From: Escherichia coli
GTDB taxonomy: Bacteria; Pseudomonadota; Gammaproteobacteria; Enterobacterales; Enterobacteriaceae
Length of the DNA stretch: 64,000 nucleotides
Assembly (NCBI RefSeq): GCF_044324875.1
Contig: NZ_CP172185.1
Direction: 5' to 3' (one strand)
Both the position numbers and the translations under genes were made by a program. Position 1 is the stretch's first letter; every line of letters begins with the position of its first letter. Shown here in pieces: positions 2,509 through 22,568 of the stretch. Under the pieces are notes generated by a model. It searched no databases and was not told the DNA's origin. It worked only from the letters and a program-made list of their open reading frames with translations.

Positions 2509-3465
2509 ATGCTACAAAATTGCGCACAATCAAATTGCCGCATTATTCCTAAGAAATTACGCGATATGAAACGTGAAGAGATTTGCCGCTTGCTGGCGGA
2601 TAAAGTTAATAAACTGAAAAATAAAGAAAATAGTTTGTCAGAACTGTTGCCCGATGTGCGTTTGTTGTATGGCGAGACGCCTTTCGCACGTACACCGGTG
2701 ATGTACGAGCCTGGCATCATAATTCTCTTTTCCGGACATAAAATCGGTTATATCAATGAACGCGTGTTTCGTTATGATGCCAATGAATACCTGCTGCTGA
2801 CGGTGCCGTTGCCGTTTGAGTGCGAAACCTATGCCACGTCAGAGGTGCCGCTGGCAGGGTTGCGTCTCAATGTCGATATTTTGCAGTTACAGGAACTGTT
2901 GATGGACATTGGCGAAGATGAGCATTTCCAGCCGTCGATGGCAGCCAGCGGGATTAACTCCGCCACGTTATCAGAAGAGATTTTATGCGCGGCGGAGCGG
3001 TTACTCGACGTGATGGAGCGACCACTGGATGCGCGTATTCTCGGCAAACAGATCATCCGCGAAATTCTGTACTACGTGCTGACCGGACCTTGCGGCGGCG
3101 CGTTACTGGCGCTGGTCAGTCGCCAGACTCACTTCAGCCTGATTAGCCGCGTGCTGAAACGGATTGAGAATAAATACACCGAAAACCTGAGCGTCGAGCA
3201 ACTGGCGGCAGAAGCCAACATGAGCGTATCGGCGTTCCACCATAATTTTAAGTCTGTCACCAGCACCTCGCCGTTGCAGTATTTGAAGAATTACCGTCTG
3301 CATAAGGCGCGGATGATGATCATCCACGACGGCATGAAAGCCAGTGCGGCAGCGATGCGCGTCGGTTACGAAAGCGCATCGCAATTTAGCCGTGAGTTTA
3401 AACGTTACTTTGGTGTGACGCCGGGGGAAGATGCGGCAAGAATGCGGGCGATGCAGGGGAATTAA
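2509..3465 (+). CDS. yqhC: AraC/XylS-family transcriptional activator of yqhD-dkgA
   Basis: ORF 2338..3465; protein from [24 protein letters not shown] (codon 58 of the track ORF) gives 318 aa; C-terminal AraC-type HTH region; divergent from yqhD. Confidence 0.88.
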
Positions 3466-3504
3466 ATACGTTCCCGGTACAGCAACCGGGAACGGGGAAA
3501 ATCG

Positions 3505-4164
3505 TCAGGCGTTACAGTATTTTTTTTTAATCACCACAAACAGCGTGCCTAACAAGCCAGCGGTTAACAAGGCAATTGGCAGGATCATCAGGATCGTCAT
3601 TACCTGATCTTCATGGCGTTTAACGAACGGAATCATACTTAATGCATAGCCGAAACTGGTTACCACGCTGACCCACAGCAATCCACTTAACCAGTTGAAA
3701 AACTGGAAGCGGCGGTTTGGCAGACCGGAAATTCCCGCCATGGTTGGCAGCAACGTACGGACAAATGCAAGAAAACGTCCAGCCAGCAGCGCCAGCAGAC
3801 CGTGGCGGTCAAACATGCAGGTGGCGCGCTGGTGATATTTAGCGGGAAGCTGTGCCAGCCAGCCTTTCACCGTTTTGGTATTCCCTAACCAGCGCCCCTG
3901 AATATAACTTAACCAGCAGCCCAGACTTGCTGCGGCGGTCAGAATCGCAATCGTAGGCAGAAAATCCATAACCCCCTGGGCAATCAATGCGCCAGCCAAT
4001 ATCAACAAGCTGTCGCCTGGCAAAAATGAGGCGGGCAGCAGGCCGTTTTCTAAAAACAGCGTGGCAAACATGACAAAGTAAACAACGCTAACAATATGAG
4101 GATCCGCCAGCGCGGCAAAGTCGTGTTGCCAGAGCGCAGCGATGATATCTTGAATAACAGCCAT
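3505..4164 (-). CDS. yghB: DedA-family inner membrane protein
   Basis: 219-aa [26 protein letters not shown]..., multi-pass hydrophobic; matches YghB. Confidence 0.9.
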
Positions 4165-6483: not shown

Positions 6484-6909
6484 ATGGCAATGCATCTTAA
6501 CGAAAACCTCGACGATAACGGCGAAATGCATGATATCAACGTGACGCCGTTTATCGACGTGATGTTGGTTTTGCTGATTATCTTTATGGTGGCGGCACCG
6601 TTAGCGACGGTAGATGTGAAGGTGAATTTGCCTGCTTCTACCAGCACGCCGCAGCCGCGCCCGGAAAAACCGGTTTATCTGTCGGTGAAAGCAGACAACT
6701 CGATGTTTATTGGTAACGATCCGGTCACCGATGAAACAATGATTACGGCGTTGAATGCGTTAACCGAAGGCAAGAAAGACACCACCATCTTCTTCCGAGC
6801 GGACAAAACCGTCGATTACGAGACGTTGATGAAGGTAATGGATACGCTGCATCAGGCGGGTTACCTGAAAATAGGTCTGGTCGGCGAAGAAACTGCGAAA
6901 GCGAAATAA
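6484..6909 (+). CDS. exbD: TonB-system protein ExbD
   Basis: 141-aa ORF MAMHLNENLDDNGEMHDINVTPFIDVMLVLLIIFM...; 6 nt after exbB stop. Confidence 0.95.
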   Translation: MAMHLNENLDDNGEMHDINVTPFIDVMLVLLIIFMVAAPLATVDVKVNLPASTSTPQPRPEKPVYLSVKADNSMFIGNDPVTDETMITALNALTEGKKDTTIFFRADKTVDYETLMKVMDTLHQAGYLKIGLVGEETAKAK

Positions 6910-6914
6910 AAATG

Positions 6915-6949
6915 ATGCCCGGTTGCTTTTCACAACCGGGCATTTTTTT
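6915..6949. terminator. bidirectional rho-independent terminator between convergent exbD and yghA
   Basis: Inverted repeat ATGCCCGGTTG / CAACCGGGCAT with 8-nt loop, followed by TTTTTTT. Confidence 0.5.
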
Positions 6950-7832
6950 AACCTAAATGCTCGCCGCCGCAGACACCGTGCACTTCTGCGGTGACGTAGC
7001 TCGACTCCTGACTTGCCAGGTAAACATATACAGGGGCCAGTTCCGCCGGTTGCCCCGCACGCTTCATCGGCGTTTTCTGACCAAACTGCGGGATCTTATC
7101 CTGCGTCTGTCCGCCGGAAATTTGCAGTGCTGTCCAGATCGGGCCAGGTGCAACAATATTCACACGAATACCTTTCTCCGCGACCTGTTTTGCCAGGCCT
7201 CGGCTGTAGTTCAGAATCGCCGCCTTCGTAGCCGCATAGTCCAGTAAATGCGGGCTTGGCTGGTATGCCTGGATTGACGAAGTGGTGATGATACTAGCAC
7301 CTTTCGGTAGCAGGGGGAGCGCTTCCTGGGTTAGCCAGAACAGCGCGAAAACGTTAATGGTAAAGGTCTTTTGAAACTGTTCGCTGGTGAGGTCTGCAAT
7401 ATCAGGAATGGCAACCTGTTTCCCGGCGACCAGCGCCATAATATCCAGCCCGCCTAACGCCTTGTGCGCTTCGTGAACCAGCGAACGGGCGAATTTCTCA
7501 TCGCTTAAATCGCCTGGCAGCAGGACGGCTTTGCGTCCGCATTCTTCAATGATCTTTTTCACATCCTGAGCGTCTTGTTCTTCTACGGGAAGATAACTAA
7601 TCGCCACGTCAGCCCCTTCACGCGCGTAAGCAATGGCGGCAGCGCGACCGATTCCGGAATCGCCCCCTGTCACCAGTGCTTTACGATCTTTCAGGCGACC
7701 GCTACCAACATAGGTTTTCTCGCCGCAATCCGGTACCGGTGTCATCTTCGCCTGGATGCCTGGCGTCGGTTGTTTCTGTTTGGGATATTCACCAGTGTAA
7801 TACTGCGTGGTCGGGTCTTTTAAATGAGACAT
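6948..7832 (-). CDS. yghA: NAD(P)-dependent short-chain dehydrogenase/reductase
   Basis: 294-aa ORF; [10 protein letters not shown] glycine-rich cofactor loop; matches YghA. Confidence 0.9.
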
Positions 7833-10637: not shown

Positions 10638-10755
10638 TAGGTTTATCTCTTACGGGATTACGTCTTAAACAAGCATGAAAAAATAGCGTGCGCAAAAGTC
10701 GTTCTTTGCCTAAAATATCGCTATATATGGCAATATATAGCGAATGAGGTGAACG

Positions 10756-18917: not shown

Positions 18918-20777
18918 ATGAGCAAAGGAACGACCAGCCAGGATGCCCCGTTCGGGACATTATTGGGCTACGCCCCAGGTGGGGTAGCAATCTACTCTTC
19001 AGATTACAGTTCTCTCGATCCGCAGGAATACGAAGATGACGCCGTATTCCGTAGCTATATCGACGACGAATATATGGGCCACAAATGGCAATGCGTTGAA
19101 TTTGCTCGCCGTTTTCTCTTTCTGAATTACGGTGTGGTCTTTACTGACGTGGGTATGGCGTGGGAGATTTTCTCGCTGCGCTTCCTGCGTGAAGTGGTTA
19201 ATGACAACATCCTGCCATTGCAGGCATTTCCTAATGGCTCGCCGCGTGCACCGGTCGCGGGCGCGCTTCTTATCTGGGATAAAGGCGGTGAATTTAAAGA
19301 CACTGGCCATGTCGCCATCATTACCCAATTGCATGGCAACAAAGTCCGTATTGCGGAACAGAACGTGATTCATTCCCCGTTACCGCAAGGGCAACAGTGG
19401 ACACGCGAGCTGGAGATGGTGGTCGAAAACGGCTGCTATACCCTTAAAGACACGTTTGATGACACCACCATTCTGGGCTGGATGATCCAGACGGAAGATA
19501 CTGAATACAGCTTACCGCAGCCGGAAATTGCAGGCGAGCTGCTGAAAATCAGCGGAGCGCGCCTGGAAAACAAAGGTCAGTTTGACGGTAAATGGCTGGA
19601 TGAAAAAGATCCGCTACAAAACGCCTATGTGCAGGCCAACGGTCAGGTGATCAATCAGGATCCGTATCATTACTACACCATTACCGAGAGTGCCGAGCAG
19701 GAGCTGATTAAAGCCACCAACGAACTGCACCTGATGTATCTTCACGCCACCGACAAGGTGCTGAAAGATGACAACCTGCTGGCGCTGTTCGACATTCCGA
19801 AAATCCTTTGGCCACGTTTGCGTCTCTCCTGGCAGCGTCGCCGTCACCATATGATCACCGGTCGTATGGATTTCTGTATGGACGAACGTGGCCTGAAGGT
19901 CTACGAATACAACGCCGATTCCGCCTCCTGTCATACCGAAGCGGGCTTGATCCTCGAACGTTGGGCGGAGCAGGGCTATAAAGGCAACGGCTTCAATCCG
20001 GCGGAAGGGCTGATTAACGAACTGGCCGGTGCCTGGAAACACAGTCGTGCACGTCCGTTTGTCCATATCATGCAGGACAAAGATATCGAGGAAAACTATC
20101 ACGCGCAGTTTATGGAGCAGGCGCTGCACCAGGCGGGCTTTGAAACGCGTATCTTGCGCGGGCTGGATGAACTGGGCTGGGATGCTGCCGGGCAACTGAT
20201 TGATGGGGAAGGGCGACTGGTTAACTGCGTGTGGAAAACCTGGGCGTGGGAAACCGCGTTTGATCAGATTCGTGAAGTTAGCGACCGTGAGTTTGCTGCG
20301 GTGCCGATCCGTACCGGTCATCCGCAAAATGAAGTGCGTCTTATCGACGTATTGCTGCGCCCGGAAGTGCTGGTCTTTGAACCTCTGTGGACAGTGATCC
20401 CCGGCAACAAAGCGATTCTGCCGATCCTCTGGTCGCTGTTCCCGCACCATCGTTACCTGCTGGATACTGATTTCACTGTTAATGATGAACTGGTAAAAAC
20501 AGGTTACGCAGTGAAACCGATCGCCGGTCGCTGTGGCAGTAACATCGACCTCGTCAGCCATCATGAAGAGGTGCTGGACAAAACCAGCGGTAAATTTGCC
20601 GAGCAGAAAAACATCTATCAGCAACTGTGGTGTTTGCCGAAAGTGGACGGTAAATACATTCAGGTATGTACCTTCACCGTTGGCGGCAACTACGGTGGGA
20701 CGTGTTTGCGCGGTGATGAATCACTGGTCATTAAAAAAGAGAGTGATATTGAACCGTTAATTGTGGTGAAAGAGTAA
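18918..20777 (+). CDS. gss: bifunctional glutathionylspermidine synthetase/amidase
   Basis: 619 aa from MSKGTTSQDAPFGTLLGYAPGGVAIY; N-terminal CHAP-type amidase region (GHKWQCVEFARR) and C-terminal ATP-grasp synthetase region. Confidence 0.95.
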   Translation: MSKGTTSQDAPFGTLLGYAPGGVAIYSSDYSSLDPQEYEDDAVFRSYIDDEYMGHKWQCVEFARRFLFLNYGVVFTDVGMAWEIFSLRFLREVVNDNILPLQAFPNGSPRAPVAGALLIWDKGGEFKDTGHVAIITQLHGNKVRIAEQNVIHSPLPQGQQWTRELEMVVENGCYTLKDTFDDTTILGWMIQTEDTEYSLPQPEIAGELLKISGARLENKGQFDGKWLDEKDPLQNAYVQANGQVINQDPYHYYTITESAEQELIKATNELHLMYLHATDKVLKDDNLLALFDIPKILWPRLRLSWQRRRHHMITGRMDFCMDERGLKVYEYNADSASCHTEAGLILERWAEQGYKGNGFNPAEGLINELAGAWKHSRARPFVHIMQDKDIEENYHAQFMEQALHQAGFETRILRGLDELGWDAAGQLIDGEGRLVNCVWKTWAWETAFDQIREVSDREFAAVPIRTGHPQNEVRLIDVLLRPEVLVFEPLWTVIPGNKAILPILWSLFPHHRYLLDTDFTVNDELVKTGYAVKPIAGRCGSNIDLVSHHEEVLDKTSGKFAEQKNIYQQLWCLPKVDGKYIQVCTFTVGGNYGGTCLRGDESLVIKKESDIEPLIVVKE

Positions 20778-20792
20778 TACATGTTGTAGCAA

Positions 20793-20827
20793 CCCTGCAC
20801 TGATTATGAAGAATAATCAGTGCAGGG
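20793..20827. terminator. strong stem-loop downstream of gss (perfect 15-bp inverted repeat)
   Basis: CCCTGCACTGATTAT gaaga ATAATCAGTGCAGGG; no clear U-tract, so terminator function is uncertain. Confidence 0.35.
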
Positions 20828-21068
20828 ATTAATCAAAATATTCAATATTTATATATTCCAATATTTATTCATTTCATATGTGAATGTATTAACCAGTGGA
20901 ATACCTGTGTTTTGATTATTTCTAAAGGTTTTGAATGAATGCTTATTATCTGATACACAAGAAATAACACGCTTTTTATCGTTAAAAAATGATATTTCAC
21001 TTTGCCCACGCCGTTAAAGTCACTGATAATGCGTCCGTTCGTAAATTCAAAATGGCGTAATCTAATAT

Positions 21069-22568
21069 ATGCTAAATTTATTTGTTGGCCTTGATATATA
21101 CACGGGGCTTTTGTTATTACTTGCTCTGGCATTTGTGTTGTTCTACGAAGCAATCAATGGTTTTCATGATACGGCGAATGCGGTGGCAACCGTTATTTAT
21201 ACTCGTGCCATGCAACCACAACTTGCTGTGGTGATGGCGGCATTTTTTAACTTTTTTGGCGTATTGCTAGGCGGACTTAGCGTTGCCTATGCCATTGTCC
21301 ATATGTTGCCAACCGATTTGTTGCTGAATATGGGGTCAACTCACGGCCTGGCGATGGTCTTTTCCATGCTGCTGGCGGCGATTATCTGGAACCTGGGAAC
21401 GTGGTTCTTTGGTTTACCGGCCTCCAGTTCGCATACCTTGATTGGTGCGATTATCGGCATCGGTTTAACCAACGCGCTGTTAACCGGCTCATCGGTGATG
21501 GATGCGTTAAACCTGCGTGAAGTGACCAAAATTTTCTCCTCGCTGATTGTTTCCCCTATCGTCGGCCTGGTCATTGCGGGAGGTCTGATATTCCTGCTGC
21601 GCCGCTACTGGAGCGGGACGAAAAAGCGTGACCGTATTCACCGCATTCCGGAAGATCGCAAAAAGAAAAAAGGCAAACGTAAGCCACCATTCTGGACGCG
21701 TATTGCGCTGATTGTTTCCGCTGCGGGCGTGGCGTTTTCGCACGGCGCGAACGACGGGCAGAAAGGGATCGGCCTGGTGATGCTGGTACTGGTGGGGATT
21801 GCTCCTGCTGGTTTCGTCGTCAATATGAATGCGTCCGGCTATGAAATTACCCGTACCCGCGATGCCGTCACCAACTTTGAACACTATCTGCAACAGCATC
21901 CTGAACTGCCGCAGAAGTTAATTGCGATGGAACCTCCATTGCCTGCGGCATCGACTGATGGCACGCAAGTAACGGAGTTTCATTGTCATCCGGCAAATAC
22001 CTTTGATGCGATTGCGCGCGTTAAAACGATGTTGCCAGGTAATATGGAAAGCTACGAGCCGTTAAGCGTGAGTCAGCGCAGCCAGCTGCGCCGCATTATG
22101 CTGTGCATCTCTGATACCTCTGCGAAGCTGGCGAAACTGCCAGGCGTCAGTAAAGAAGATCAGAACCTGCTGAAAAAACTGCGCAGCGATATGTTAAGCA
22201 CCATTGAGTACGCTCCGGTGTGGATCATCATGGCGGTAGCACTGGCGCTCGGCATTGGTACCATGATTGGCTGGCGTCGTGTAGCGATGACCATCGGTGA
22301 GAAGATTGGTAAGCGCGGCATGACGTATGCGCAAGGGATGGCGGCGCAGATGACGGCGGCGGTATCTATCGGCCTTGCCAGTTATATTGGGATGCCTGTT
22401 TCCACAACACACGTCCTCTCGTCTGCGGTAGCAGGGACGATGGTGGTGGACGGCGGTGGGTTACAGCGTAAAACGGTAACCAGCATCCTGATGGCGTGGG
22501 TGTTTACTTTACCGGCGGCGATTTTTCTGTCTGGTGGGTTGTACTGGATAGCATTGCAGTTGATTTAA
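21069..22568 (+). CDS. pitB: low-affinity inorganic phosphate transporter (PiT family)
   Basis: 499-aa polytopic [51 protein letters not shown]... Confidence 0.9.

Follow-up and report, generated by a model that had tools for sequence, protein, structure and literature searches.

The perfect inverted repeat downstream of gss in Escherichia coli is very probably the RNA 3'-end hairpin of the gss transcript

Introduction

The spacer between gss and pitB in Escherichia coli contains a perfect 15-bp inverted repeat that lacks a U-tract, and this raises the question of what such a structure does at the end of a gene. A reading of the locus made from the DNA sequence alone, hereafter the sequence-only reading, had offered a Rho-dependent pause site, a protein-binding dyad and an RNA stability element side by side. 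Here, the locus was analyzed with respect to published RNA 3' ends, variation of the repeat within and between species, and the organization of gss ends in other genera.

The window, by which the whole 64,000-nucleotide stretch of DNA that was analyzed is meant, is a segment of the E. coli chromosome with the gene order hybG, yghU, gss, pitB, yghT and yghS. The names gss and pitB agree with the RefSeq annotation of matching E. coli genomes. When a 601-bp query covering the gss-pitB region (window positions 20600-21200) was used, the swine strain CFSAN018748 was the best match (99.5% identity), and K-12 was found to have the same gene arrangement on the opposite strand.

Results

The dyad is single-copy and far beyond chance

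The two arms of the repeat enclose the loop gaaga and pair perfectly over 15 bp (Table 1), and both position and sequence were exactly as the sequence-only reading had given them. A spacer of 15 nt separates the stop codon of gss (TAA) from the stem, which ends 241 nt before pitB, of which the ATG is located at 21069. The short stop-to-stem spacer is identical among the E. coli strains sampled and shows 67-94% identity to that of other Escherichia species.

The dyad downstream of gss far exceeds what chance would give. Among perfect inverted repeats with a loop of 3-10 nt it has the longest arms in the window, the runners-up having arms of 11 bp, and in 30 dinucleotide-preserving shuffles of the window arms stayed at or below 11 bp. 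Folded as RNA, the 35-mer yielded -25.3 kcal/mol vs -4.8 ± 2.2 kcal/mol in shuffles (z = -9.4). The earlier judgement that the repeat is unusually long and perfect for a simple terminator is overstated, as its stability of -25 kcal/mol lies within the range of -14.6 to -39.2 kcal/mol obtained for gss hairpins of other genera.

Table 1. Features at the gss end, in coordinates of the window
Feature	Position	Strand	Basis
gss coding sequence, bifunctional glutathionylspermidine amidase/synthase	18918..20777	+	ORF list; RefSeq annotation of CFSAN018748 and K-12
15-nt stop-to-stem spacer TACATGTTGTAGCAA, without A-tract	20778..20792	+	sequence
Stem 5' arm CCCTGCACTGATTAT	20793..20807	+	positions 4, 6 and 7 covary with the 3' arm
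Loop GAAGA, 5 nt	20808..20812	+	sequence
Stem 3' arm ATAATCAGTGCAGGG	20813..20827	+	sequence, fold
7-nt tail AUUAAUC, ending where the mapped K-12 gss 3' terminus falls	20828..20834	+	coordinate transfer from K-12
52-nt G-free A/U-rich tract, candidate weak Rho-loading/termination zone	20828..20879	+	sequence, composition

A dispersed repeat or mobile element was ruled out, with no second copy in the window, one locus per genome and none in phage records. The "second place" reported in genome searches was the palindrome matching its own reverse strand, and four "plasmid" matches were the same locus in multi-megabase mislabelled chromosomes or a large chromosome-derived record. Like REP/BIME elements, the gss dyad is an extragenic palindrome of about 35 nt that is situated in a 3' UTR and may stop 3' exonucleases; unlike these, it is single-copy per genome and its sequence is unrelated to the REP consensus. 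An Rfam scan of positions 20000-22000 with a permissive E-value gave sub-threshold hits throughout (E > 0.2), the best being rli38 with 28.7 bits vs a threshold of 49.

Two further structures were noted in the window. At 6908-6950, between an IS200C tnpA and the convergent yghA, lies a bidirectional intrinsic terminator of textbook type (AAAAATG-ATGCCCGGTTG-cttttca-CAACCGGGCAT-TTTTTTT), a useful counterpart to the U-less gss hairpin. Between yghX and yghW, at 10718-10743, two arms of 11 bp form a perfect inverted repeat around 4 nt (TCGCTATATATGGCAATATATAGCGA); this repeat lies about 14 bp upstream of the likely start codon of yghW and resembles an operator or a hairpin of the 5' leader.

A published K-12 RNA 3' end falls directly after the stem

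In the TRS supplementary tables (PMC10687069), a 3' terminus of K-12 gss is listed on the minus strand of NC_000913.3 with its dominant position at 3136606 (3136605 in one data set) and peak boundaries at 3136604-3136613. This terminus is classified as 'Primary' and is present in the LB RNAtag-seq set as well as in two further reanalyzed data sets (PMC10687069). The listed upstream sequence is UUGUAGCAACCCCGUACUGAUUAUGAAGAAUAAUCAGUACGGGGAUUAAUCA, for which the authors' fold gives the same 15-bp stem with -25.9 kcal/mol (PMC10687069).

The hairpin runs from 3136647 to 3136613 of NC_000913.3 on the gss strand, which places the dominant end 7 nt beyond the stem, at the equivalent of window position 20834; the peak boundaries transfer to 20827-20836. 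The end was mapped in K-12 and we infer it for the strain of the window, the tail sequence being identical in both. A 3' UTR of 58 nt is implied for gss, and the published K-12 terminus lies within the 7-9 nt after the stem at which the RNA of a canonical intrinsic terminator ends. According to the legend of Supplementary Data 3 (PMC10687069), the fold sequence extends from 40 nt upstream to 10 nt downstream of a terminus and the 'U-tract seq' from 20 nt upstream to 10 nt downstream, whereas the thrL and gss rows of that table hold about 50 nt upstream and 1 nt downstream for the fold and 10 nt upstream and 20 nt downstream for the U-tract. Because of this mismatch between legend and rows, termini were placed by coordinates.

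The sequence-only reading was to be abandoned if no 3' ends mapped here and the dyad was not conserved. A primary gss terminus was found at the dyad in the published K-12 data, and orthologous intergenic regions across Escherichia have kept the dyad with compensatory changes (see below), so that neither of these two observations was made. Both results support an interpretation of the dyad as a transcript-end and RNA stability element.

The tail is poor in U and the downstream tract is G-free

The sequence following the stem is ATTAATCAAAAT, and its first 7 nt hold three U. The d'Aubenton-Carafa-type T score of the gss tail is 1.21; U-richer tails found at this position in Citrobacter reach 2.6-3.1, and canonical tails (Citrobacter sp. 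FP75, thrL) 5.2-5.5. A U-rich tract of 7-8 nt directly 3' of the stem, as is characteristic of canonical intrinsic terminators, is missing, and the gss hairpin was given no call in a simple terminator pattern scan. The lack of a U-tract noticed in the sequence-only reading is thereby confirmed, and so is the AT-rich character of the sequence up to pitB, as the gss-pitB intergenic region has a G+C content of about 30%.

The G-free tract that follows the stem (Table 1) contains six C (12% C), which form five UC and one CC dinucleotides. Over 78 nt, the C/G ratio is about 1.0-1.1 and thus near the median of 0.91 across the window. Judged by this composition, the tract would be weak at best as a rut-like signal.

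In other members of the genus the tail differs. It reads AAUAAUC in Escherichia sp. MOD1-EC7003, and AGCAUGU and AAAAUCG in E. albertii and E. whittamii, respectively, where almost no U is left and the T score is about 0.2. A 12-nt indel was observed directly after the stem (20828 onward), E. albertii and E. whittamii being 12 nt longer than E. coli, and the sequence just 3' of the hairpin is therefore non-homologous across the genus. Since the stem is kept while the tail is free to be U-less, the conserved role of the hairpin would be independent of a U-tract.

Pairing of the arms is maintained across Escherichia

Of 5,426 complete E. coli genomes, 5,402 carry the dyad, each at a single locus. 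The arms of K-12, CCCCGTACTGATTAT and ATAATCAGTACGGGG, are shared by 4,036 genomes in all and show two differences per arm relative to the window, both of which are compensated. Sampling of the identity classes showed that the two types can be joined by single steps (Table 2). The perfectly paired form in the middle of this series was first predicted and then searched for, and it was recovered in exactly 116 genomes. The mismatched intermediates appear to be rarer, with about 43 genomes for one and a single strain seen for the other.

Table 2. Stepwise series of outer arm sequences between the K-12 type and the window form
Form	Outer arms (5' / 3')	Pairing	Occurrence
K-12 type	CCCCGTA / TACGGGG	perfect	4,036 genomes
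Strain C4	CCCCGCA / TACGGGG	one C.A mismatch	1 strain seen
Predicted intermediate	CCCCGCA / TGCGGGG	perfect	116 genomes
Strains 1190 and O166:H15	CCCCGCA / TGCAGGG	one C.A mismatch	about 43 genomes, by subtraction
Window form	CCCTGCA / TGCAGGG	perfect	24 genomes, including ATCC 8739 and porcine ETEC

Further single changes lead to G.U pairs on the sense RNA, namely in BL21 (ATAATTAG), in O157:H7 (TCCCG and ATAGTCAG) and in O2:K2:H1 (CTCCG). E. whittamii and Escherichia sp. E1V33 carry CCGTGCTGATTAT and ATAATCAGCACGG and thus a third compensated pair (A-U to G-C). The stem of E. albertii has 13 bp including one U.G pair and is closed by a 6-nt loop, other loop variants being GATGA and CAAAA, while Escherichia sp. 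MOD1-EC7003 has a U.G pair at the stem terminus. Every one of the Escherichia variants forms a hairpin of 13-15 bp with -20 to -25 kcal/mol.

In an alignment of 11 sequences, standard pairs occupied 95.2% of the pair cells, vs 27-47% when the 3' partners were slid by 1-3 columns, and three stem pairs were altered on both sides, where the related rows of the alignment mean that covariation counts do not equal independent events. The arms show 85-93% identity between species, compared with 60% for the loop and 59-63% for the next 115 aligned columns. By these identities the stem is a conserved island in a drifting spacer across the genus Escherichia, and the substitution patterns show that it is pairing, not sequence, that is maintained.

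About six of the single-step changes give G.U on the sense RNA vs two that give C.A, and on the antisense RNA the two C.A steps of the compensatory series would become U.G pairs. As the 6:2 split is non-significant, covariation alone leaves the strand undecided, and it is the mapped end, together with the gene context, that assigns the hairpin to the sense strand.

Three strains were noted for changes at this locus. In E. coli 360D-1 (locus record about 330-635), the 3' arm of the hairpin is interrupted after ATAATCAG by an inserted IS1 end (GGTAATGACTCC...). In E. coli E6 (locus record 3117-3885), an IS1A at the truncated 3' end of gss joins this gene to a partial sslE/acfD, and both hairpin and pitB are deleted. 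In E. coli O2:K2:H1 C 237-04 (locus record 1676-1971), pitB is annotated as a frameshifted pseudogene and the middle of the gss-pitB spacer shows 74% identity to K-12 with flanks of 96-100%; this mid-spacer is a locally hypervariable or recombined patch.

gss ends in other genera and the region upstream of pitB

A strong hairpin after the gss stop codon was found in all 79 further Enterobacterales genomes with a gss orthologue that were examined (-14.6 to -39.2 kcal/mol), and in 67 of them no more than 30 nt separate the two. Hairpins of different genera are unrelated in sequence. TTTT abuts the hairpin in at least 22 of the 79 genomes, a lower bound obtained with this simple test, and among these are classic terminators with A-tract, stem and U-tract in Citrobacter, Enterobacter and Lelliottia. 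The automated T score across the 79 loci was set aside, as pairing between A-tract and U-tract lengthens the predicted stems. In Klebsiella, Raoultella and Salmonella arizonae the gss hairpins are U-less. In three Citrobacter species, this position is taken by a CCCCG...CGGGG hairpin, which is followed by UUUUAAC, UUGUAUG or UUAUUUG.

The gene pitB is located next to gss in Escherichia only; among the loci tested from Citrobacter, Salmonella, Klebsiella and Enterobacter, none was found to have it in the 3 kb that follow gss. The approximately 126 bp before the pitB start codon (window 20940-21068) show 90-96% identity across Escherichia vs about 60% in the middle of the spacer, and this block contains, especially at 21002-21030, a promoter-like TTGCCC-17-GATAAT. 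The pitB-proximal block is probably the promoter and leader of pitB, independent of the hairpin.

Discussion

Taken together, the mapped K-12 end and the maintained pairing argue that the repeat is, with high probability, the sense-strand 3'-end hairpin of the gss mRNA. How this end arises is the next question, and a described class of transcripts offers a comparison. Dar & Sorek (2018; PMC6061677) reported Rho-dependent E. coli transcripts with precise steady-state ends just after stable stem-loops, which have no U-rich tail, no upstream A-tract and a mild bias of C over G downstream. In their model, termination occurs further downstream and is followed by trimming by PNPase and RNase II back to a protective hairpin, and 'transition states' between terminator types are discussed as well (PMC6061677). 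The gss locus resembles this class in that a stable stem-loop lies right upstream of a precise 3' end, in the reduced U content after the stem and the missing A-tract before it (likewise in E. albertii and E. whittamii), and in a hairpin energy similar to that of intrinsic terminator hairpins. C exceeds G in the 52 nt after the stem, yet over 78 nt the C/G ratio is close to the median of the window. The locus differs in that the downstream tract, although G-free, is poor in C, and with three U in seven A/U-rich positions the gss tail may represent a 'transition' case.

By analogy to this class, we lean towards a hairpin that serves as an exonuclease stop and mRNA-stabilizing end for transcripts that are terminated downstream, probably by Rho. 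Release of RNA polymerase by the hairpin alone would probably be inefficient because the tail lacks a U-tract, and most transcription would run on into the G-free, AT-rich spacer, where Rho is the most likely factor to halt it. Trimming by PNPase and RNase II would subsequently shorten the RNA as far as the hairpin, at which both enzymes would be blocked, leaving a fixed 3' end and a gss mRNA protected from decay. A minority of transcripts may be released directly by the hairpin over the all-A/U hybrid. Either route would provide a defined gss transcript end and insulate pitB, which has its own conserved upstream region.

The link to Rho proposed in the sequence-only reading is plausible. The table of Rho-dependent 3' ends by Adams et al. 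(2021) has no entry at 3136300-3136799 and hence none in the gss-pitB spacer, possibly owing to weak expression of gss. Neither the TERMITe supplement nor that of a stem-loop preprint lists gss, and full-text literature searches for gss with pitB, pitB with bicyclomycin and ProQ with gss found nothing. The table of Adams et al. also lists a minus-strand Rho-dependent end at K-12 NC_000913.3 position 3139530, antisense to yghU and upstream of gss on the gss strand.

An end located exactly 7 nt after the stem would also result from direct intrinsic termination, and this is the strongest alternative to Rho-dependent termination with trimming. The repeat would then be a weak Rho-independent terminator, in which a stable hairpin and an RNA:DNA hybrid of 7 nt composed of A/U (AUUAAUC) free RNA polymerase at +7, perhaps with the help of NusA or NusG, and the mapped end would be the true point of termination. 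As in a canonical intrinsic terminator, a strong sense-strand hairpin follows soon after the stop codon and the RNA ends at the canonical distance. The U-richer Citrobacter tails at the same hairpin position suggest descent from a U-tract terminator, and the TTTT-flanked hairpins of other genomes together with the 'transition states' of Dar & Sorek point in the same direction. Against this stand the three U of the tail with their low T score, the missing pattern-scan call and the absence of an upstream A-tract. Moreover, the stem is longer and its upper half more A/U-rich than in a typical intrinsic terminator, and E. albertii and E. whittamii keep the stem with an essentially U-free tail after the 12-nt indel. 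We regard intrinsic termination as possible but rather unlikely to be the main route.

The repeat could also be a neutral quasi-palindrome that is kept perfect by template switching during replication, with the RNA end accumulating there simply because exonucleases halt at every stable hairpin. It is established that quasi-palindromes are corrected by template switching, a mutational process that can yield 'compensatory' changes without selection, and it would fit this explanation that the two mismatched intermediates each have C.A on the sense RNA. Template switching leaves unexplained, however, why the arms are 85-93% identical between species and the spacer about 60%. The stem has survived the adjoining 12-nt indel, and hairpins of unrelated sequence at this position in 79 of 79 other Enterobacterales genomes indicate a retained role. 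A neutral origin is thus very unlikely.

Still a little less likely is a factor-dependent read-through valve in place of a passive end, its efficiency being set by Rho, by NusG or by a protein that binds 3' hairpins, such as ProQ. If this held, gss transcription would conditionally enter the Escherichia-specific pitB and couple phosphate uptake to the glutathionylspermidine/redox state.

The least probable of the explanations is a DNA dyad bound by a dimeric regulator, such as an operator that influences pitB or gss: the palindrome is perfect, its core CTGATTAT-N5-ATAATCAG is nearly invariant in E. coli and the K-12 form has LexA-like half-sites (TACTG...CAGTA), but the outer half of the arms changes with complementarity kept, which indicates a constraint on pairing and not base-specific contacts, the O157 and BL21 lineages show tolerance, at high frequency, of asymmetric changes that lead to G.U, the loop varies, about 210 bp lie between the dyad and the conserved block with the promoter-like site further downstream near pitB, and an RNA 3' end maps directly after the dyad. 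The protein-binding dyad of the sequence-only reading finds no support in these data. The LexA (SOS) box has the consensus TACTG-N10-CAGTA. A LexA box was rejected, since K-12 has TACTG-N15-CAGTA, not N10, and in the window (CACTG...CAGTG) the half-sites are lost.

The gss 3'-end hairpin is an ordinary feature of an already described class, and its terminus and fold are already contained in a published table of 3' termini. For gss, a transcript end and a 58-nt 3' UTR are gained, with little import beyond annotation, and it is explained why this end escapes a terminator predictor in which a U-tract is required. Within E. coli, the repeat offers a clean case of stepwise compensatory evolution in a 3'-end hairpin, in which the perfect intermediate is still segregating. 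Across the Enterobacterales, the end of gss is a single gene end that switches between U-tract and U-less hairpins, and it illustrates the easy switching of terminator types proposed by Dar & Sorek.
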